Assembly: GCA_021650915.1 (NCBI GenBank)
Contig: CP091279.1
Span: forward strand, 360,001 to 392,000
Direction: 5' to 3'
From: Candidatus Brocadia sp.
Lineage (GTDB): Bacteria > Planctomycetota > Brocadiia > Brocadiales > Brocadiaceae
DNA: 32,000 bases
Positions 12,311 to 30,385 of the stretch are shown here, one piece after another. Both the position numbers and the translations under genes were made by a program. The stretch's first letter is position 1. Each line of letters opens with the position of its first letter. The notes below the pieces were generated by a model, which worked only from the letters and a program-made list of their open reading frames with translations, made no database searches and was not told the DNA's origin.

Positions 12311-12397
12311 TGATTTTACGTTACGCTGGAAATTCATCTTGCCGTGCCCTGCCGGAACTTTTGCAATTCCGCAATAGAAAACAGGAGATATCTTTCA

Positions 12398-13453
12398 TTG
12401 GTATTGGAATACGACGTGGTCGTTGTAGGCGCCGGGCCATCCGGCGCAGCCGCAGCCAGAGGACTGATAAATGCAGGACTCAAAGTCCTCGTCATTGAAA
12501 AAAAGAAACTGCCTCGTTACAAGATCTGTTCCGGCATTATCTTCAAAAAATCGCAGGAACTAACCACAAAATATTTTGGTGACATTCCGCCTTCAGCGTA
12601 CGTAACTCCAAATTTTTTAAAAGGGGTGCGGTTCTGGGACCAGCATGGACACTCTACCGATTGGCCATTTAGCAAGGATGGCGATGGCGCACCTAACATA
12701 TGGCGGTCTGAGTATGATTCCTGGCTTATCAAAAATTCGGGGGCAGAAGTCTGGGATTGCTGTAACCTGAAGGGATTTACCACTTCAGCCGACCACGTAT
12801 CACTGGAATGTTATCGTGCCACCAGGAACGAAAAAACGGAAATAAAATGCACGTACTTAATCAGCGCAGAAGGCAGCAGGTCATTCATCAGGGCCACCCT
12901 TGACCCATCGTTTGAAAAAAGCCTGAAATGGTTTGTTGCATACCAGAATTACTATGAGGGACACTCCGATGTGGATCCTTATTTTTACCATGGTTTTCTC
13001 GACCCTCAATACGGTGACGTTTACGCATGGTTTAATGTAAAGGATGGCTTGCAGATTTTTGGCACCGCGGTGAAAATGGGTAAAAAACTCTCTTCCTGCC
13101 TGAACCACTACACAAAAATGCTGGAAAATAAATTTGGCTTACGGCTCACAAAACTGGTGAGAAAGGCCGGCTGCCTGGGAAATGATATGTGCACAACAGG
13201 CAGGTTTTATTTGGGAAGGGGAAATATACTCCTGGTTGGGGAGGCAGCGGGATTTCTCAATGCCTTTGGCGAGGGGATTTCGTGCGCATTATCAACCGGT
13301 CTGGCTGCGGCAGAGGCAATCAGTAAAGGCAAACCATCAGGAGGCGATGCGTTCGCATTATATACCGAGTTAACAAAGCTGGAGAGAAGGCAGACCACGC
13401 TGTCGTGGAAATTGGGCGCCAGGATTGCCGGCAGAAATCTGATGCCCTTATAA
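12398..13453 (+). CDS. FAD-dependent oxidoreductase, geranylgeranyl reductase family
   Basis: N-terminal dinucleotide-binding motif is YDVVVVGAGPSGAAAA. The C-terminal family motif is LLVGEAAGFLNAFGEGISCALSTG. The start is uncertain: TTG at 12398 is preceded by AGGAGA, while the ORF track uses GTG at 12344. Confidence 0.65.
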   Translation: MVLEYDVVVVGAGPSGAAAARGLINAGLKVLVIEKKKLPRYKICSGIIFKKSQELTTKYFGDIPPSAYVTPNFLKGVRFWDQHGHSTDWPFSKDGDGAPNIWRSEYDSWLIKNSGAEVWDCCNLKGFTTSADHVSLECYRATRNEKTEIKCTYLISAEGSRSFIRATLDPSFEKSLKWFVAYQNYYEGHSDVDPYFYHGFLDPQYGDVYAWFNVKDGLQIFGTAVKMGKKLSSCLNHYTKMLENKFGLRLTKLVRKAGCLGNDMCTTGRFYLGRGNILLVGEAAGFLNAFGEGISCALSTGLAAAEAISKGKPSGGDAFALYTELTKLERRQTTLSWKLGARIAGRNLMPL

Positions 13454-18609: not shown

Positions 18610-18615
18610 TATGTA

Positions 18616-20466
18616 GTGTCTGAACGAAAACGCACTTTTTGTAAAAGTGCGAGGTCGATTTTCTATTTACCAATAGATAATTTTAAGATTTGAGATTAGG
18701 GTTTTTGGCAAAAATACTGTTCTTTTACATATTTCCCTTGTTTTCCCCTTTATTTTAGCCTTGTCTGGGCGTACCTGCCTCCCGGCAGACTGTTTTTCTT
18801 CGTGTTTTTTGCTTGCTTAGGCGGCTTTTCGCAACTTTTCGCACTGCTTCCGTGCCTTCTCCTGCAGCACGTTTCCCAGCTTGTGCAAATTCGCAGCTAA
18901 CACGCCCATTGCACAATATCTTTTAAAGGCATGCAGCCCTTTGTCCGGACACCTATCCAAGCCGTGATGCTCCAAACGATTGATATCCGATTCTACCGCC
19001 GAGTGCTTGTGCCTTAGCTTCTTAAATGTCTTACCCGATTCCTCTTCCTGTTCCGCCTTATTCTTCTTGCCCTTCTTGGGAAGGATTACCTCTGGTATAT
19101 ACAAACTCAGCAACTCTTTATTCTCTTTCTTGTAAAAACCTTTATCAAAACTTATACTCTTTATTGTGCCTTCTCCGTAACGGCTCAACAACCTATCTGC
19201 CAATGGAATTACCAACGATACATCCGCCTGTTTTTCTCCTACCACATGGTCCACGATGAAACCCCACTGATCGCTTGCTACCAGAATATTATGTCCCAAC
19301 TCTACCCTTTTGTTTGACTTGCCTTTGTACAGCCACTCCGTATGCGGCTCAAACAACGAATGAACCTTTTCTGCCGCCGGTATTACCTCATCCCGGATCA
19401 CCCTTCTCTCCACCAGGTCTATCTGTTTATTCAACATCCCGTGAAAATACTCCAGTGTCCCTATTTTCCCTGCATGCTTGTCTACCTGGTTCGTCGTTAG
19501 CACCTTTTCGTAGATGGCTAACAGACTCGCTCCTATCTTTTCACTCAAACCCCTCGATAATTCCAAGTAACTCCTCACATGCTCTTCCTTGTTTTTCCCC
19601 CCCGCTGCTTGACGCCTTTGCGCTTATCCTCATCAGCTTTTTTAACTCTCTCCTCCAATATTTGCTCTTGCGCCATCCTTTCCCCGCCAGGATGCCTTCC
19701 TCTATTGCATCCTCTATCATGTCCAGACTCTTGCGTCCCGCATCCCACAATAAATTCATATCGGTCGGAAAGTGTACATTCGTCTCTAACACATACGTAT
19801 CCACCTTAATACACAGTCCTTCGTCCTTTTTTTTAACCAACTGATGCCCCGATGATATCACCACTTCATTTATCTGCCTGAGGGTCTCCTCATCCAACAA
19901 TCTTATATTGTCCTTGATGCTCTGCATCGAAAAAACCTTCGCCTCTCCAAATGCCGTCTCAACCCCCATTATCTGCCTGATAAGTTTGTGATGGTTGGCA
20001 AAATCCTCCAACCTGTCATAATCGGCATCTAACCCTAATCTTACCACCGACAACACCAAAATATGCCATAAATCCATCCCATATCTTCCCGTCTTTTTTC
20101 TTCCCCTTCGTTACCTTCGCCTCTAATATCCGGAATACCTCCTCGTTCAACTCCGGTGTAACATAGATATGTTGCAACGCCCTCAGTATCGGTGGTAGCT
20201 CATCTCGACTCTTTATTGGCAGTTTTACCCCTGAAATGGGTATGATGCCAAGCTTCAATTGCTGCTCAAATCTCTTTCTCATCTTCTATCGAATGTCCTT
20301 TGGCTAGTGGGTTAATGAACCGAATATTTGGACTCTTTATACCCAGAATCCCTTCATTTTCGCCATATTTTACCCTTTTACCCGAAAAAATTCAATGACT
20401 TTCATGAACATTTTTCACCAGCTTCTCCTTACTTTACAGGGCTCTGGGGGGTTTCCGTTCAAACAC
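18616..20466 (-). mobile_element. IS element copy 1 (DDE transposase, ISNCY/IS5-like), 1851 bp, inserted in vapC
   Basis: It matches 28440-30289 except for one extra T in a T-run (20094-20099). Terminal inverted repeats are GTGTCTGAACGAAAAC and GTGTTTGAACGGAAAC (reverse complement). The 6-bp direct repeat TATGTA lies at 18610-18615 and 20467-20472. Confidence 0.85.
18817..20282 (-). pseudogene. Transposase of IS copy 1, broken into three ORFs
   Basis: ORFs 20016..20282, 19541..20077 and 18817..19578. The extra break relative to copy 2 comes from an A6 run versus an A5 run (plus-strand T-run 20094-20099). Confidence 0.75.
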
Positions 20467-20885: not shown

Positions 20886-20929
20886 AAGAATAACCTAGCG
20901 CAGCACAGCCGCAACCAAATTTCCTTTAT

Positions 20930-21040
20930 GAAAGTGGGGAGATTGCTTCGGAAAAGGCCCTCGCAATGACAGCGACCATGCACTTTTTGATGGCACACTG
21001 CACGTTGTCATTGCGAGTGAAGCGAAGCAATCTTTCACTC
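20930..21040. repeat. Imperfect palindromic element (GATTGCTTCG..CTCGCAATGACA / TGTCATTGCGAG..CGAAGCAATC)
   Basis: The arms are AGATTGCTTCGGAAAAGGCCCTCGCAATGACAGCG and CGTTGTCATTGCGAGTGAAGCGAAGCAATCT, separated by about 35 nt. Confidence 0.55.
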
Positions 21041-21118
21041 ATAAAAACGGTACCTCTTGAAAGGGGGTTGTAAAATAATGCAAAAAGAGAAGATTTTATA
21101 AGATAATACTATACGTAA

Positions 21119-21859: not shown

Positions 21860-22381
21860 ATGAAAAGGACAGATAACAAAGCTCTTCACCTGATTGCAGT
21901 TCCGCCGTCTGAAAAGGCGCTTAGTCAGACAATTGGCGAAGCGCATCGGCGTTACACGCGTCGCATAAACTTCCGGGAAGGCTGGAGAGGACACCTATGG
22001 CAAGGACGTTTTGCCTCTTTTCCCATGGACAAAACCCATCTGTACGTAGCCGCACGCTATGTTGAACTGAATCCCGTAATGGCAAATTTGGTTAAGAAAC
22101 CACAGGATTACCGATGGAGCAGTGCATCTGCACACATTGCTGGGCGAGATGATCGACTTGTGCATGTAGCTCCGTTGCTTGAAATGTTTGGCGAGTTGGG
22201 TGATTTTCTTTCCAGAGGCCTATCAGACGAAGAAGTCGAAAAGTTTCGATGTCACGAGCGAACCGGAAGACCTCTGGGCACTAACCGTTTTATAGCCAGG
22301 CTTGAAAATGTTCTTGGAAGAATGCTCAATAAGCAGAAACCCGGCCCAAAGGCGCTTCAAAAGAAAAATAAGAATCTCTAA
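21860..22381 (+). pseudogene. N-terminally truncated HUH/Y1 transposase-like gene (COG1943 / RayT-like family)
   Basis: HLIAVPPSEKALSQTIGEAHRRYTRRINFREGWRGHLWQGRFASFPMDKTHLYVAARYVELNPVMANLV..YRWSSASAH matches the family from the HUH strand onward. The first roughly 70 residues are absent. NKALHL stands where the HUH motif (NHVHL) is expected. The ORF starts 2 nt after the hicA stop. Confidence 0.65.
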
Positions 22382-22398
22382 AATTAAGTATGGTGTCC
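22382..22398 (+). repeat. Left half of the 32-bp repeat (copy X) split by the group II intron
   Basis: AATTAAGTATGGTGTCC here joins CCGGAATTCCAAC at 24385-24397. The joined sequence matches the reverse complement of 26384-26415 (AATTAAGCATGGTGTCCCCCAGAATTCCCAAC). Confidence 0.75.
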
Positions 22399-22893
22399 GT
22401 ACGCAGTAACATTTGTTTATTCTTACGGGTTAAAGTCCCGTCCGGGAATTATCCGTTCACCCCGGTAGTTCAAGGGAGCGGCGTCTGAGCAATCAGGGGT
22501 CGTAAGTTCCCAATTGGCAAAACCGCAGGCTGCAGCGCAAGCGAACCTACAAGTAGCCTCGTCAATACAAATTGAAGATGCCGACCCCGTGGACACGTGG
22601 GGAAGGCCGAAGATTGCAGACTCAGGCAACGGAAGGAGTCTGTAATATCTTCCGGGGTAGCAGGGGCGGCATGCAGTGGAAGATAAACAGACCAGTGCTG
22701 GAGACCCTATGCAGTAATGTTTGAGGGGCATAAACCGCTCTGTATAAGGAAACGAAATCACAGCGGGCTGTATAGGGAGTCGGAGGGGTTCATGATACCG
22801 TTTGAGGACAAGGGACAACAAAACCCTGTTCGAGGAAAGGAACCCTGCTTTGTTCATGCAACCGAAGAGTAGAGGAAAAGGGAGATTGCAGAA

Positions 22894-24210
22894 ATGCTAA
22901 CAACCCCGGAAAAGATCAGGATACTACAGAGGAAGCTATACCGAAAGGCCAAGCAAGAACCAACCTACCGCTTCTACGCCCTCTATGACAAGGTATTCCG
23001 GGCAGACATCCTCAGTCATGCTTACACCCTTGTCCGTGCCAACAAAGGGAGCGCCGGGATAGACGGCGTAACCTTCGAGGCCATCGAGGAAAGAGAAGGG
23101 GTATCCGCCTTTCTGGCGGAACTGCAAGAAGCACTCAGGAGCAAGACCTATCAAGCAAGCCCTGTAAAACGAGTAATGATACCCAAGACGGACGGAACGG
23201 AACGCCCGTTAGGCATTCCCACCATCCGTGACAGGGTAGCGCAGATGGCCGTAAAACTGGTCATAGAACCCATTTTTGAAGCCGATTTCTGCGAATGTTC
23301 ATACGGGTTCAGGCCGAAGAAATCTGCCCACGATGCCGTAGATGACGTAGCATATACCCTCAACAAGGGATATACCGAAATCATAGACGCCGACCTGTCC
23401 AAATACTTTGACACCATCCCCCATGCCAAGCTTATGGCTGTGGTAGCAGAGCGCATCAGTGACGGTGAGATACTGCACCTGATAAAGACGTGGCTCAAGG
23501 CTCCGGTCATAGAAAAAGGCAGAGACGGAAAACAAAGGAACATCGGCGGAGGTAAAGGGAACCGGAAAGGCACACCTCAAGGAGGAGTAATCTCACCGTT
23601 ACTAGCCAATCTCTACCTGCACCTCCTGGACAGGATATGGGAGAGACATCGACTGGAGAAGAAACTCGGAGCCAGATTAGTACGCTTTGCCGATGACTTT
23701 GTCGTACTGTGCAGGCAAGGAACTGAACAGCCAATGGCGATAACAAAGCGGGTGCTGGACAAACTGGGACTGACGTTAAACGAGGCAAAGAGCCGTGTAG
23801 TAGACGCCATGAAAGAGGGATTTACCTTTCTTGGGTTTGAACTTCAAAAGAGGAAGAATTGGCGCACGGGGAAGAGTTATCCCCATGTTCAGCCGTCGAA
23901 GAAATCTCTCAAGAAGATAAAAGACCACATTACGGCACTTACCAGCAGGAACAGGTCCCCTCTACCGTTTGAAGCGATAGTCAAAGAGGTGAATACGGCA
24001 CTGATAGGATGGACAGGATACTTCCATTATCGCAATTGCAGCAGAGTCCTCAAGCAAGTAAGAGAACACGCTCAATTCCGGCTTCGGATACACCTGTACA
24101 GACGTCATAAAATCAGAGACAGGAAGACAGGGCTTAAGCGATACACAAACAGCATGTTATATGAGAGATATGGTCTTTACAAAGTGCCGACCACAGCGGT
24201 ATGGAGATAG
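22894..24210 (+). CDS. Group II intron reverse transcriptase/maturase
   Basis: 438 aa. RT motifs include RPLGIPTIRDRVAQ, YGFRPKKSAHDA, the VRFADDFVVL (YADD-type) box and PQGGVISPLLANLYL. The maturase X-domain motifs are GWTGYFHY and ..RYGLYKV. There is no HNH/En domain. Confidence 0.9.
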   Translation: MLTTPEKIRILQRKLYRKAKQEPTYRFYALYDKVFRADILSHAYTLVRANKGSAGIDGVTFEAIEEREGVSAFLAELQEALRSKTYQASPVKRVMIPKTDGTERPLGIPTIRDRVAQMAVKLVIEPIFEADFCECSYGFRPKKSAHDAVDDVAYTLNKGYTEIIDADLSKYFDTIPHAKLMAVVAERISDGEILHLIKTWLKAPVIEKGRDGKQRNIGGGKGNRKGTPQGGVISPLLANLYLHLLDRIWERHRLEKKLGARLVRFADDFVVLCRQGTEQPMAITKRVLDKLGLTLNEAKSRVVDAMKEGFTFLGFELQKRKNWRTGKSYPHVQPSKKSLKKIKDHITALTSRNRSPLPFEAIVKEVNTALIGWTGYFHYRNCSRVLKQVREHAQFRLRIHLYRRHKIRDRKTGLKRYTNSMLYERYGLYKVPTTAVWR

Positions 24211-24238
24211 CGCATGCCTTATGGTGAAGGGCATCGGA

Positions 24239-24272
24239 AAGCCGTGTGCGGGAAAACCGCAAGCACGGTTTG
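24239..24272 (+). ncRNA. Group II intron catalytic domain V
   Basis: AAGCCGTGTGCGGGAAAACCGCAAGCACGGTTTG has the AGC triad, a two-part helix with a bulge and a GAAA tetraloop. It aligns position by position with the domain V consensus (GAGCCGUAUGCGAUGAAAGUCGCACGUACGGUUC). Confidence 0.8.
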
Positions 24273-24384
24273 ATGAGGGAGGACTGGCGAAATAGCATGG
24301 TGAGGCTACTGAGGCACTGCCAGACGAAAGGGGCAGAAACAGATAGGCCAACCTAAACTATAGATAGCCAGTTCCCTACTCTAC

Positions 24385-24397
24385 CCGGAATTCCAAC
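24385..24397 (+). repeat. Right half of the 32-bp repeat (copy X)
   Basis: CCGGAATTCCAAC lies immediately after the intron 3' end. See 22382-22398. Confidence 0.7.
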
Positions 24398-24398
24398 T

Positions 24399-24692
24399 AT
24401 GAATCCAAGAGTAAAAGCAGTAAAGGCAAGAGATGACTATAAACTCGAGATAACCTTCTCAAATGGTGAGGTTGGCATGTACGATTGCAGTCCTTTGCTT
24501 AATTTCGGTGTATTCACCGAGTTGAAAGACAAAATTTATTTTCAACAGGCGAGGGCGGCACATGGAACTGTCGTATGGCCGCATGAGCAGGATATATGTC
24601 CCGACACGTCATATTTAGATTCTGTAAAAATAAAAAAGTCTCCTAACAAATCACTCCAGCGAACTGGCACAAAAAGCCGTGCCAGCCACTGA
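24399..24692 (+). CDS. DUF2442 family protein (cassette 1)
   Basis: MNPRVKAVKARDDYKLEITFSNGEVGMYDCSPLLNFGVFTELKDKIYFQQARAAHGTVVWPHEQDICPDTSYL matches the DUF2442 pattern. The last roughly 17 codons (SPNKSLQRTG...) are read-through into the attC-like site. Confidence 0.7.
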   Translation: MNPRVKAVKARDDYKLEITFSNGEVGMYDCSPLLNFGVFTELKDKIYFQQARAAHGTVVWPHEQDICPDTSYLDSVKIKKSPNKSLQRTGTKSRASH

Positions 24693-24707
24693 GTTTTGTC
24701 GTTCAGC
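24641..24707 (+). other. attC-like recombination site A (67 bp)
   Basis: R'' is TCCTAAC, followed by a 5-nt spacer and L'' ACTCCAGC..CTGGCAC. This pairs with L' GTGCCAG..ACTGAGT, followed by a 6-nt spacer TTTGTC and R' GTTCAGC. There is an extrahelical C in L'' and a spacer asymmetry of 5 versus 6 nt. Confidence 0.6.
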
Positions 24708-26383: not shown

Positions 26384-26415
26384 GTTGGGAATTCTGGGGG
26401 ACACCATGCTTAATT
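26384..26415 (-). repeat. Uninterrupted copy Y of the 32-bp repeat, inverted relative to copy X
   Basis: The plus strand reads GTTGGGAATTCTGGGGGACACCATGCTTAATT. Its reverse complement AATTAAGCATGGTGTCCCCCAGAATTCCCAAC matches the joined intron flanks. Confidence 0.75.
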
Positions 26416-26491
26416 ATTGACATTAATTTTAAAATAGTTAAGATGTATGCATACTACTATTCATCAACTTCTTGTTTTTTCTGAGTGTTTT

Positions 26492-28048
26492 TCATGCAGC
26501 CATTTCCGTAAGCGCTTTAATATCAAGGGCTGAAGCAGTCATCAGCGAACAAGGGAACTTCTGGCCTTTCTCCGTCAAGACATAGCGGTTGGCCCGTGGA
26601 ACTTTGCGGATTAGGCCGTGTGCCCGCAGCAGCTTTATCCGTCGGGCCGTACGACCGGAATACTTCTTTTGCTGATCCTTGCCGGCTTGTTCTGATTCCC
26701 GGTAAAGCCACTTACGCAAATCATGGTTGCGGAATCCGTTTATCGCGTTCTCACCTTTGGACAGGAACATCAGCATCCGGTAATCATCCTGCTGCCAGGG
26801 ATTCAAACCCCGATACCTCTTGCCCTCTTTGACAACCTTGTTACAAGCGCCGCACACCACTTCCTTCAGTTTCTCCTCCACCTGAGCCGCCGCTAAAGCA
26901 TCCCCATAACGATCGTTGCATTGCTGGCTCACCTCACACCGTCGATGAAGATCGCTCACGCCCTTACGCATCTTCTGCCATGACGCCGGTTTGCCTTCAT
27001 CATCATTGGGACTCCGAAAGACCTTAAAGTCCCGCGTATTATTGATCGTTGTCTCAATACGCAAGAGACTGCCGCTCTTGTTATACATCTTCACTGAATT
27101 ATAATTCACCCTGTGCTTAACCCGTATACCTTCATAGCGTCTTCGGTAGTCGCTGATAACCTCATCAGGAGCACTGCCTCCAAGGCTACGCCTACCCAAA
27201 TACTTCATCACCGAAGGACTGTCGCAAACCCGCATCGCATGATGAACAAACGACGGAAACAATTCCTCCAATGTCGCAACCGATTTAAACATGATGTCCG
27301 TCGCCCACTCCGTCTCATCCGCCGACCAGTAATACTCCGGTTCCAACGGACGAAGAACCTGCGACAATGCCGGGCAACTGCCCAACGCAAGACCGTTCAG
27401 CAGCTTCGCCCAGTCAGTCTTAAGCTGCTCATGGAGCAGTCCCTGCGCAGCCGCAATATCCTCTATGCGCACAAAACAGTTGCCGTCCTTAACATAATCA
27501 ATACCCTGCTTCTGAAGTTGCCGCTCCAGCCAGTGACGTCCGTTAAGACAAATGAAGATGTTGAACGGTACCCAACTCTGAATCCGGACATGACCAAAGC
27601 CAAACACCGGATCGTTAAAATAATGATACACAAAGACACACTTGCGGGGCTCCATCACCAACTTGAGCTTCTTGCTGGCCTTGTTGCCCTTAACCTTCGG
27701 CGCAATACAAGGCTCTACCACACTCAACAGACAGATGGAGCCTTCTGTAATCCTCTTGTCCTTCGCAATCTGGCGAGCCAGCTTATCCTTATCAACACCG
27801 CTGCTTGCCAAATATCTCACCTCAATACCCAAATCTTTCGCCCGCGATTCACAACTCTCCCGCACCTGTGCCGTAAGACCATTGACCCAATCGGAAAAAT
27901 CCTTCAGCAAAATCCTCGCATAACTCATGTATGTGCTCAGCCCCCGCTCACTGGCCAACCACCTCAATGTCCCTCGAAAACGAATCCTGTCCAGACCGCT
28001 TATTGCACCCATGATTCTGTCTCGATATAATTCCATCAACTTCTTCAT
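26492..28048 (-). CDS. Conserved hypothetical protein, 518 aa, possibly associated with a mobile element
   Basis: Long ORF with strong coding character; the 305-aa antisense ORF is low-complexity. I recognise no catalytic motif. The C-terminus RRIKLLRAHGLIRKVPRANRYVLTEKG looks like a winged-helix segment. It lies between the cassette array and IS debris. Confidence 0.55.
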   Translation of the reverse strand: MKKLMELYRDRIMGAISGLDRIRFRGTLRWLASERGLSTYMSYARILLKDFSDWVNGLTAQVRESCESRAKDLGIEVRYLASSGVDKDKLARQIAKDKRITEGSICLLSVVEPCIAPKVKGNKASKKLKLVMEPRKCVFVYHYFNDPVFGFGHVRIQSWVPFNIFICLNGRHWLERQLQKQGIDYVKDGNCFVRIEDIAAAQGLLHEQLKTDWAKLLNGLALGSCPALSQVLRPLEPEYYWSADETEWATDIMFKSVATLEELFPSFVHHAMRVCDSPSVMKYLGRRSLGGSAPDEVISDYRRRYEGIRVKHRVNYNSVKMYNKSGSLLRIETTINNTRDFKVFRSPNDDEGKPASWQKMRKGVSDLHRRCEVSQQCNDRYGDALAAAQVEEKLKEVVCGACNKVVKEGKRYRGLNPWQQDDYRMLMFLSKGENAINGFRNHDLRKWLYRESEQAGKDQQKKYSGRTARRIKLLRAHGLIRKVPRANRYVLTEKGQKFPCSLMTASALDIKALTEMAA

Positions 28049-28320: not shown

Positions 28321-28640
28321 TGTAGTCCCCCTTTGTAAGAAATAAAACAGAGTCTACAATATTTAAGTTATTTATGCAAGTAAACACTAGTATACAGACA
28401 TATTAATTACGAATTATATATTGTGGACAATTATAATTAGTGTCTGAACGAAAACGCACTTTTTGTAAAAGTGCGAGGTCGATTTTCTATTTACCAATAG
28501 ATAATTTTAAGATTTGAGATTAGGGTTTTTGGCAAAAATACTGTTCTTTTACATATTTCCCTTGTTTTCCCCTTTATTTTAGCCTTGTCTGGGCGTACCT
28601 GCCTCCCGGCAGACTGTTTTTCTTCGTGTTTTTTGCTTGC

Positions 28641-29402
28641 TTAGGCGGCTTTTCGCAACTTTTCGCACTGCTTCCGTGCCTTCTCCTGCAGCACGTTTCC
28701 CAGCTTGTGCAAATTCGCAGCTAACACGCCCATTGCACAATATCTTTTAAAGGCATGCAGCCCTTTGTCCGGACACCTATCCAAGCCGTGATGCTCCAAA
28801 CGATTGATATCCGATTCTACCGCCGAGTGCTTGTGCCTTAGCTTCTTAAATGTCTTACCCGATTCCTCTTCCTGTTCCGCCTTATTCTTCTTGCCCTTCT
28901 TGGGAAGGATTACCTCTGGTATATACAAACTCAGCAACTCTTTATTCTCTTTCTTGTAAAAACCTTTATCAAAACTTATACTCTTTATTGTGCCTTCTCC
29001 GTAACGGCTCAACAACCTATCTGCCAATGGAATTACCAACGATACATCCGCCTGTTTTTCTCCTACCACATGGTCCACGATGAAACCCCACTGATCGCTT
29101 GCTACCAGAATATTATGTCCCAACTCTACCCTTTTGTTTGACTTGCCTTTGTACAGCCACTCCGTATGCGGCTCAAACAACGAATGAACCTTTTCTGCCG
29201 CCGGTATTACCTCATCCCGGATCACCCTTCTCTCCACCAGGTCTATCTGTTTATTCAACATCCCGTGAAAATACTCCAGTGTCCCTATTTTCCCTGCATG
29301 CTTGTCTACCTGGTTCGTCGTTAGCACCTTTTCGTAGATGGCTAACAGACTCGCTCCTATCTTTTCACTCAAACCCCTCGATAATTCCAAGTAACTCCTC
29401 AC
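28641..29402 (-). CDS. IS transposase C-terminal part (orfB), +1 frame relative to orfA
   Basis: 253 aa. Homology continues across the orfA/orfB junction if one nt is skipped in the G7A5 run at 29415-29427 (..SSGGKNKEEHVRSYLELSRGLSEKI..). The C-terminal part carries SFDKGFY and HSAVESDINRLEHHGLDRC motifs. Confidence 0.75.
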   Translation of the reverse strand: MRSYLELSRGLSEKIGASLLAIYEKVLTTNQVDKHAGKIGTLEYFHGMLNKQIDLVERRVIRDEVIPAAEKVHSLFEPHTEWLYKGKSNKRVELGHNILVASDQWGFIVDHVVGEKQADVSLVIPLADRLLSRYGEGTIKSISFDKGFYKKENKELLSLYIPEVILPKKGKKNKAEQEEESGKTFKKLRHKHSAVESDINRLEHHGLDRCPDKGLHAFKRYCAMGVLAANLHKLGNVLQEKARKQCEKLRKAA

Positions 29403-30105
29403 ATGCTCTTCCTTGTTTTTCCCCCCCGCTGCTTGACGCCTTTGCGCTTATCCTCATCAGCTTTTTTAACTCTCTCCTCCAATATTTGCTCTTGCGCCAT
29501 CCTTTCCCCGCCAGGATGCCTTCCTCTATTGCATCCTCTATCATGTCCAGACTCTTGCGTCCCGCATCCCACAATAAATTCATATCGGTCGGAAAGTGTA
29601 CATTCGTCTCTAACACATACGTATCCACCTTAATACACAGTCCTTCGTCCTTTTTTTTAACCAACTGATGCCCCGATGATATCACCACTTCATTTATCTG
29701 CCTGAGGGTCTCCTCATCCAACAATCTTATATTGTCCTTGATGCTCTGCATCGAAAAAACCTTCGCCTCTCCAAATGCCGTCTCAACCCCCATTATCTGC
29801 CTGATAAGTTTGTGATGGTTGGCAAAATCCTCCAACCTGTCATAATCGGCATCTAACCCTAATCTTACCACCGACAACACCAAAATATGCCATAAATCCA
29901 TCCCATATCTTCCCGTCTTTTTCTTCCCCTTCGTTACCTTCGCCTCTAATATCCGGAATACCTCCTCGTTCAACTCCGGTGTAACATAGATATGTTGCAA
30001 CGCCCTCAGTATCGGTGGTAGCTCATCTCGACTCTTTATTGGCAGTTTTACCCCTGAAATGGGTATGATGCCAAGCTTCAATTGCTGCTCAAATCTCTTT
30101 CTCAT
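29365..30105 (-). CDS. IS transposase N-terminal part (orfA)
   Basis: 246 aa. MRKRFEQQLKLGIIPISGVKLPIKSRDELPPILRALQ...GMDLWHILVLSVVRLGLDADYDRL...DTYVLETNVHFPTDMNLLWDA is typical of ISNCY/IS5-like DDE transposases. Confidence 0.75.
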   Translation of the reverse strand: MRKRFEQQLKLGIIPISGVKLPIKSRDELPPILRALQHIYVTPELNEEVFRILEAKVTKGKKKTGRYGMDLWHILVLSVVRLGLDADYDRLEDFANHHKLIRQIMGVETAFGEAKVFSMQSIKDNIRLLDEETLRQINEVVISSGHQLVKKKDEGLCIKVDTYVLETNVHFPTDMNLLWDAGRKSLDMIEDAIEEGILAGKGWRKSKYWRRELKKLMRISAKASSSGGEKQGRACEELLGIIEGFE

Positions 30106-30385
30106 CTTCTATCGAATGTCCTTTGGCTAGTGGGTTAATGAACCGAATATTTGGACTCTTTATACCCAGAATCCCTTCATTTTCGCCATATTTTACCCTT
30201 TTACCCGAAAAAATTCAATGACTTTCATGAACATTTTTCACCAGCTTCTCCTTACTTTACAGGGCTCTGGGGGGTTTCCGTTCAAACACTAATTATATCG
30301 CGCCGCAAAACAGTATTTATATGTTTCGTTATTAATATGTCTCTACGCTAGCTTTTTAAGGAATGTCAGACCCGGTGTGTGGTCG

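Follow-up and report, generated by a model that had tools for sequence, protein, structure and literature searches.

Among bacterial group II introns, the nearest comparison for the element described here is offered by the IIE/IIF type, whose named members include Ge.ur.I1, Pe.th.I2, D.a.I1 and Cl.be.I2 (Nagy et al. 2013, PMC3753933). These introns measure 450–700 nt without their open reading frame (ORF), have no endonuclease (En) domain, and share two diagnostic traits, a 5-nt loop of domain V (ζ′) and an α′ sequence that forms the end of a domain Id3 stem-loop. Characterisation of this class has been limited to self-splicing, and the role of its second exon-binding site (EBS2) is an open question (PMC3753933). 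For the way of life of the element, a second comparison is provided by RmInt1, an En-less class D intron of Sinorhizobium meliloti, described (PMC1802570, PMC8914252) as homing into a multicopy mobile element and reaching many copies per genome. The target itself leads to a third system, the TIRtrons of Di Nocera, De Gregorio and Rocco (2013, PMC3733652), elements with a RAYT-like transposase gene (TIRYT) between non-palindromic terminal inverted repeats (TIRs), a class that is untested at the bench according to that paper. The locus lies in a stretch of 32,000 nt of the complete, 4.05-Mb genome of Candidatus Brocadia sp. (contig CP091279.1, positions 360001–392000), hereafter called the window, in whose numbering coordinates are given unless they are marked as genomic. 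A complete group II intron of 1986 nt occupies 22399–24384 on the plus strand, with GUACG at its 5′ end and ...CUAC at its 3′ end, and it is very probably a mobile, En-less, IIB-like intron of the IIE/IIF type that retrohomed, guided by its EBS1, into the right TIR of a TIRtron.

An earlier note on this DNA, made from the sequence alone, had claimed a group II intron at this site, and covariance models agree: Rfam group-II-D1D4-6 (RF02005) matches at 22432–22667 with 73.9 bits and Intron_gpII (RF00029, domains V–VI) at 24237–24384 with 47.7 bits, both above the gathering score. The ORF (22894–24210, plus strand), which lies in domain IV, encodes a protein of 438 aa with a reverse transcriptase (RT) and a maturase (X) domain (RVT_1 124 bits, GIIM 53 bits); with TIGR04416, the model for group II RT/maturases, it gives 397 bits (cut-off 300), and it ends 21 aa past GIIM, without a DNA-binding or En domain. 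Its closest public relatives indicate an anammox planctomycete from the Brocadia/Jettenia group. Against the solved IIC reverse transcriptases it reaches only ~194 bits, the solved group II RT structures available for comparison being those of IIC, CL and ML proteins only. The 495 nt before the ORF and the 174 nt after it make up a ribozyme of 669 nt, and in the relatives the domain I match and the ORF lie equally far apart. The compact pre-ORF part and the En-less RT had been called unusual; both are present, but together they are the published IIE/IIF pattern (PMC3753933).

The two diagnostic traits are found as well. Domain V (24239–24272, plus strand, 34 nt, with an AGC triad) ends in the 5-nt terminal loop GAAAA at 24252–24256 (GCGG-GAAAA-CCGC), and α (UCCGUU, 22452–22457, plus strand) pairs with α′ (AACGGA, 22628–22633) in the terminal loop of the domain Id3 hairpin, a pairing for which the relatives show the compensatory variants UCCG/CGGA, CUCG/CGAG, UUCG/CGAA, UGCG/CGCA and GGUAG/CUACC. 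Further likenesses to the IIE/IIF introns are the IIB-like ribozyme of ~670 nt without ORF, a protein of RT and X only, a dominant pairing of EBS1 with the first intron-binding site (IBS1) beside a weak EBS2, and relatives in Geobacter, Desulfuromonadales and Rhodocyclaceae, the first and last of which recur among the relatives of the intron-encoded protein. Unlike the published introns, the lineage of the window intron begins with GU(A/U)YG instead of GUGYG, and two thirds of its members carry large insertions in domain VI that are mentioned neither in PMC3753933 nor in PMC3552965. The 5′ end GUACG had been read correctly and held to be unusual; in 54 distinct relatives, however, the 5′ ends were GUACG (21), GUAUG (18), GUUCG (14) and GUUUG (1), with GUGYG in none, and GUACG is a lineage-wide variant and no defect. 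Class IIC was considered and rejected: the insertion does not follow a hairpin, EBS1 covaries over 6 bp, domain V has 34 nt with an AGC triad, and the IIE/IIF traits are present, whereas IIC introns have a short EBS1 and no EBS2 (PMC3753933). The intron itself is not a new kind of element; what deserves attention is its domain VI module and its pairing with a TIRtron.

The boundaries at 22399 and 24384, proposed earlier with a margin of 1 nt, are borne out by the rest of the genome, which holds seven full-length copies of the intron (1986 or 1987 nt, ~100% identical) and an eighth that is truncated at its 5′ end. All seven full copies are preceded by ...AAGTATGNTGTCC, and CCRGAAT stands directly 3′ of all eight intron 3′ ends, that of the truncated copy included. 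Uninterrupted (empty) sites were found by a 17-mer genome search and agree with these ends; one at genome position 3907893 (minus strand) reads AATTAAGTATGATGTCC-CCGGAATTCC. The ambiguity of ±1 nt remains because a C ends both the 5′ exon and the intron, and 22399–24384 is preferred because it gives the GU...AC ends and the EBS1 pairing. Among the seven full introns a total of five positions vary, and the ORFs are identical.

The 32-bp repeat that harbours the intron is the ~27-bp TIR of a RAYT-like tyrosine-transposase element, that is, a TIRtron. A complete element measures ~790 bp and consists of a left TIR, a promoter of the TTGACA/TAAGAT type, a Y1 transposase gene and a right TIR, the TIRs being ~27-bp inverted copies of AATTAAGTATGGTGTCCCCGGAATT without self-complementarity. 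The TIR includes GGGGACAC, which fits the motif GGGGWSAS given for TIRtron TIRs (PMC3733652), and the insertion of the intron splits this motif between GG and GGACAC. The single intact transposase gene of the genome lies elsewhere and encodes 225 aa, with 55 bits for Y1_Tnp (cut-off 23) and 66 bits for REP_Tyr_transpos (under its cut-off of 80), and it shows the motifs NHVHL and YVELNPV, corresponding to the HUH motif and the catalytic tyrosine. The members of the transposase family are 90–95% identical between loci and break off at different truncation points. The likeness to the published TIRtrons thus covers the RAYT-like gene with HUH and tyrosine, the non-palindromic inverted repeats, the GGGGWSAS-type motif and the occurrence of solo repeats; the difference is the intron within the motif, since PMC3733652 makes no mention of introns.

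In the window, the transposase gene next to the intron is a dead, 5′-truncated copy (21860–22381, plus strand) in which homology starts at ~21887, inside the HUH motif; it matches Y1_Tnp at profile positions 54–119 only, scores 39 bits for REP_Tyr_transpos, and is 90–95% identical to six other genomic copies. Its right TIR is divided by the intron into the 5′-exon half AATTAAGTATGGTGTCC (22382–22398, plus strand), the 17-mer that is identical before all seven full copies, and the 3′-exon half CCGGAATTCC (24385–24394, plus strand). Five of the seven copies follow the 3′ end of this same gene, and two follow a different, promoter-like context, i.e., they lie in left TIRs. The empty repeat in the window, which had been placed at 26384–26415 and used to define the junction, is real and is a solo TIR, the left one of another element, itself truncated (26387–26415, minus strand; insertion point equivalent between 26399 and 26398). 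Instead of the “2–3 differences” first reported, it carries two substitutions and two single-C indels, among them T to C at −10 in the exon and one additional C behind the insertion site, and an ungapped search allowing up to three mismatches did not recover it. With that additional C, the in-window copy taken by itself would leave the exact base of the junction undecided; it is settled by the sites across the genome. Beyond it lies the promoter-like stub of the same element (TTGACA - 16 nt - TAAGAT, 26416–26446, plus strand), where homology to full elements ends at the transposase start codon.

No hairpin was found in the TIR, the 5′ exon or the empty site, the minimum free energy (MFE) being −0.8 to −0.9 kcal/mol with z about +1, and on this ground the TIR is not an attC site, a REP palindrome or a terminator. 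The framing of the repeat by cassettes and attC-targeting introns therefore has to give way to that of a non-folding TIR flanking a Y1 transposase gene. The repeat does recur elsewhere, at filled and empty TIRs genome-wide. Hairpin-guided (IIC-like) targeting was also rejected for the window intron, as the TIR does not fold. Some irregularities were seen next to other copies. The truncated intron copy (genome 351367–352589, 8.6 kb upstream of the window start) retains the 3′ 1223 nt; behind it stand three CCAGAATTCA-like units in tandem, which gives the impression that the TIR's outer half has been repeated, and a double CCAGAATTCA-like unit also lies 3′ of the intron copy at genome position 1596436. 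Directly past the left-TIR stub in the window lies a 518-aa ORF (26492–28048, minus strand) that matches none of the Pfam families and has just a faint NCBIfam match.

How the intron finds its target can be followed through the pairing of EBS1 (GGACAC, 22591–22596, plus strand), which lies in a domain I hairpin loop, with IBS1 (GTGTCC, 22393–22398, plus strand), the last six bases of the 5′ exon. The two covary across relatives: in 52 distinct relatives EBS1 formed a mean of 5.75 bp with its own exon, against 3.93 ± 0.16 with permuted exons (0/500 permutations reached the observed value), and EBS1/IBS1 pairs that changed together include GGUCAG/CUGACC, GGACGU/ACGUCC, GUGCGU/ACGCAC and CUACA/UGUAG. 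IBS3 is the C at 24385 (plus strand), and position +1 is a C in nearly all relatives. A candidate EBS2 (AUAC, 22565–22568, plus strand) could pair with the exon sequence GUAU (−11 to −8), where complementarity marks a candidate IBS2 (GTAT, 22388–22391, plus strand).

The occupancy of the sites points in the same direction. In the genome, 14 TIR sites were found; those with an intact GTAT..NTGTCC, followed across the insertion point by C, comprised seven filled sites and one empty site, and those changed in IBS1 or at −10 comprised six empty sites and none that was filled (Fisher p about 0.002, our own calculation). Two of the empty TIRs carry a T to C change at exon position −10, unlike the filled ones, and a role of this position in targeting may be inferred. 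The genome contains 294 unoccupied GTGTCCC sites, nearly all of them away from TIRs, and none carries the intron; therefore a contribution beyond EBS1 and EBS3 is needed, either a weak EBS2 or contacts of the protein. Taken together, the filled, empty and mutated sites define the homing site of an IIE/IIF-type intron to the base and with unusual clarity.

From these elements the following route is proposed. The intron would retrohome into the right TIR of a TIRtron copy lying in a run of small toxin-antitoxin cassettes, where EBS1 (GGACAC) in the intron RNA would pair with the 5′-exon terminus GUGUCC, EBS3 would probably pair with the C that opens the 3′ exon, and a further contact, by the weak EBS2 or by the intron-encoded protein, would probably read GUAU at −11 to −8. 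The RNA would then reverse-splice into the DNA between TCC and CC. Since the protein has no endonuclease, a host replication primer is assumed to prime the cDNA, as in RmInt1. The parallel with RmInt1 (PMC1802570, PMC8914252) extends to the missing En domain, to homing into a multicopy mobile element and to the many copies per genome. It does not extend to the intron class, which is different, or to the target, which in RmInt1 is the transposase gene of a DDE-type insertion sequence (ISRm2011-2) and in the window intron is the non-coding TIR, at either end, of a Y1 (HUH) element.

The 3′ part of the intron holds its second peculiarity. Domain VI (24275–24381, plus strand) has a basal helix formed by 24275–24288 and 24367–24381, in which A24378 bulges out; this A, at a distance of 7 nt from the 3′ terminus, would serve as the branch point in splicing. 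The loop of the domain is replaced by a structured insertion of 78 nt (24289–24366, plus strand). This arrangement, described in the earlier note as a domain VI-like helix, was reproduced in a consensus fold of 20 relatives: the 13 basal pairs are 99% paired, three of them with changes on both sides, and over the whole domain 98.2% of cells are paired and seven pairs have changed on both sides, against at most 56% paired in a control in which the partner strand was slid by 1–3 columns. The inner helices of the insertion (24307–24310/24347–24350 and 24320–24324/24335–24339, plus strand) show compensatory changes from CG to UA in 10/20 and 4/20 sequences, respectively; the insertion is real and is enclosed by the basal helix. 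At its tip is a C(GAAA)G loop (24328–24333, plus strand) that is conserved at the end of this module, here called type 1. The loops of type 1 modules resemble the 11-nt tetraloop receptor, which PMC2691827 gives as CCUAAG...UAUGG; the window copy does so only loosely (CAUGG...CCUAAA), which makes this a lead rather than a finding.

Domain VI was scored in 73 relatives and proved variable. It is short and canonical (36–41 nt) in 15, of medium length (~55 nt, one of 106 nt) in 9, and carries the type 1 module of the window intron (112–117 nt) in 21 and an unrelated type 2 module (100–114 nt) in 25; in the other 3 the 3′ end was not located. These forms are interleaved on a quick protein tree, where the well-supported branches demand at least five changes for type 1, which suggests repeated gain, loss or exchange of domain VI modules. 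A permissive Rfam scan of the whole intron returned no further family, and none in the domain VI insert, and a description of such insertions was not found in the literature. The closest likeness is that to domain VII of the class B introns of the B.c.I4 type (Stabell et al. 2009, PMC2691827), which is also an extra structured 3′ module (~55 nt) with a loop like the 11-nt receptor and a patchy distribution that is not monophyletic. In those introns, however, the module lies downstream of domain VI and the 3′ splice site is shifted by 53–56 nt, whereas in the window intron the module sits inside the domain VI loop and the spacing of branch A and 3′ splice site is canonical. The natural series of domain VI forms (none, type 1, type 2) would suit a test of how the distal part of the domain affects branching versus hydrolysis.

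Several results weigh against the reading of the window intron as an active, EBS1-guided IIE/IIF-type element of TIRtron ends. Covariation of the candidate EBS2 and IBS2 across relatives was not significant (3.98 bp versus 3.79 ± 0.11 permuted), and the fully matching TIR site at genome position 3907893 is empty. No replication-strand bias was seen, three copies being co-oriented with replication and four counter-oriented (a small sample; GC-skew origin near 3.08 Mb, terminus near 0.75 Mb), so that this count lends no support to priming at the fork. The assignment to the En-less, IIB-like introns, made from sequence traits, is to the IIE/IIF type as a whole; the anammox Kuenenia intron c-Ku.st.I1 is reported to group with class F members (Toro & Martinez-Abarca 2013, PMC3552965), which makes class F the likely candidate for the present intron. 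Finally, the window copy could be impaired, given its RT active site and two private changes in domain I. The active-site motif is FADD (23686–23697, residues 265–268) rather than YADD, which is found in 118/120 of the closest homologues, and FADD is shared with one 96%-identical protein only. One of the private changes is the loss of a G from the run at 22444–22446, which removes a domain I base pair, and the other is a T at 22531, also in domain I; these are the only two private changes found among the seven copies.

These features of the window copy are also what speaks for the best surviving alternative, namely that it is a relic in decay, incapable by now of splicing or moving, and that its domain VI insertion is neutral, the more so as 15 natural relatives do with a short domain VI and no insertion. 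On the other hand, an intact ORF that does not vary among the seven copies indicates that the FADD form is active now or was so recently, unless the protein of another intron mobilised it, and the helices of domain VI are kept by compensatory changes, with long invariant loops, among relatives only 60–75% identical in protein, which argues for selection. Decay of this one copy is on balance unlikely, and to judge from the sequences the window intron has been active recently.

It is highly improbable that intron and transposase element spread jointly as a composite, by transposition or segmental duplication, although the upstream transposase 3′ end shared by five of the seven copies would fit such a history. 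The introns differ at no more than five positions, yet their flanks are 5–10% diverged and the transposase copies have different truncation points; two copies lie in left TIRs with another upstream context, TIRs of either orientation are occupied, and the 3′ flanks are all different. For these reasons the intron is taken to have entered each TIR separately and recently. Empty TIRs of the family, moreover, occur in this genome and, by a junction probe, in 35/46 related genomes.

The intron is found in TIRs outside this genome as well. With the same junction probe, the junction of the TIR with GTACGCAGTAAC turned up in seven further genomes, which belong to five additional genera of the family. 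Among more distant relatives, in other phyla, a TIRYT homologue (62% identical) adjoins the intron in L010, from a Nitrospirota genome, and TIRYT homologues also do so in L024, L025, L040 and L077; the 5′ exons of several relatives end in TIR pairs of the form GGGGACA...TGTCC. A tentative, rather doubtful extension would combine two proposals: that the lineage is a dedicated parasite of TIRtron ends across several phyla, which splits the GGGGWSAS motif and probably disables the elements, and that the domain VI insertions are exchangeable tertiary-contact modules (GAAA tip and receptor-like loop), swapped by recombination, that position the branch helix where the protein has no C-terminal domain. 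Neither parasitism of TIRtron ends nor exchangeable domain VI modules were found described in the papers searched, and a search on group II introns and RAYT gave nothing on the targeting of TIRs by introns among the titles and abstracts of the matches listed. If the lineage does specialise on TIRs, it would be a parasite of a parasite, and it could help explain the decay of TIRtrons.

Some further observations concern the relatives. In L011, L019, L024, L027 and L037, EBS1 reads GGUCA(N) and the insertion follows ...TTGACC, which is preceded by an inverted repeat GTCAA-N8-9-TTGAC or, in L019, by a full TIR pair; TIRYT-like genes lie upstream of the intron in L024 and L040. It thus appears that this intron lineage targets a second TIR family too. 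In L104 and L105 (genomes G028 and G009, same family), a TIR-inserted copy carries a deletion from intron position ~27 to ~350, with most of domain I gone.

The surroundings of the window intron are in part cassette-like. The neighbouring genes, all on the plus strand, include HicA, DUF2442, Unstab_antitox, toxin/antitoxin pairs and a PNPOx-like gene, and these small toxin-antitoxin genes look like cassettes. Between them lie imperfect palindromes with AAC...GTT ends (e.g., 24646–24706; fold z = −2.5 to −3), some of which are attC-like; ad hoc attC scans, made without an attC model, gave nothing or noisy matches. IIB introns co-oriented with cassettes near IS200-type elements, among them UHB.I2, have been reported (Sonbol & Siam 2021, PMC7923331), also in CALINs, i.e., attC clusters without an integrase, and the window intron resembles them in its toxin-antitoxin neighbours, its nearby HUH (IS200-like) element and its orientation. 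That it is nevertheless an attC-targeting, integron-associated intron, a same-orientation counterpart of the IIC-attC introns with the repeat as part of an attC, is the least credible of the readings considered, since the repeat does not fold and stands, in inverted orientation, on both sides of a Y1 transposase gene, every insertion lies in a TIR even at loci with other neighbours, the 6-bp covarying EBS1, 34-nt domain V with AGC triad, IIE/IIF traits and lack of a preceding hairpin are not those of IIC introns, and an integron integrase is present only as broken pieces far away. The earlier observation that intron and cassettes share one orientation stands, but the contrast it drew with attC-targeting IIC introns, which lie in the opposite orientation, does not apply, because the target is a TIR without a hairpin; the orientation of the intron is set by the TIR and not by the cassettes.

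No integron integrase was found in or near the window, TIGR02249-like fragments occurring at 3.86 Mb only. There, at genome 3858791–3859655 (minus strand), three adjacent integron-integrase pieces (80, 54 and 78 bits) are broken by TGA stops and probably represent a broken integron integrase. Within the window, two identical copies of a ~1.8-kb insertion sequence with a DDE transposase (18614–20394 and 28438–30297) lie 9.8 kb apart in direct orientation, with the run of cassettes, the intron and both TIRs between them; 24-bp inverted ends were found at 28432–28455 and 30274–30297. Between small ORFs at 20909–21073 there is a near-perfect palindrome of 165 nt with AAC...GTT ends (DNA fold −32 kcal/mol), which may represent either an attC-like site of great length or a miniature inverted-repeat element. 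Finally, the non-coding segment 11957–12310, upstream of the ORF at 12344–13453, contains a cluster of interlocking inverted repeats, with five pairs listed whose arms of 20–30 nt are 80–100% complementary.

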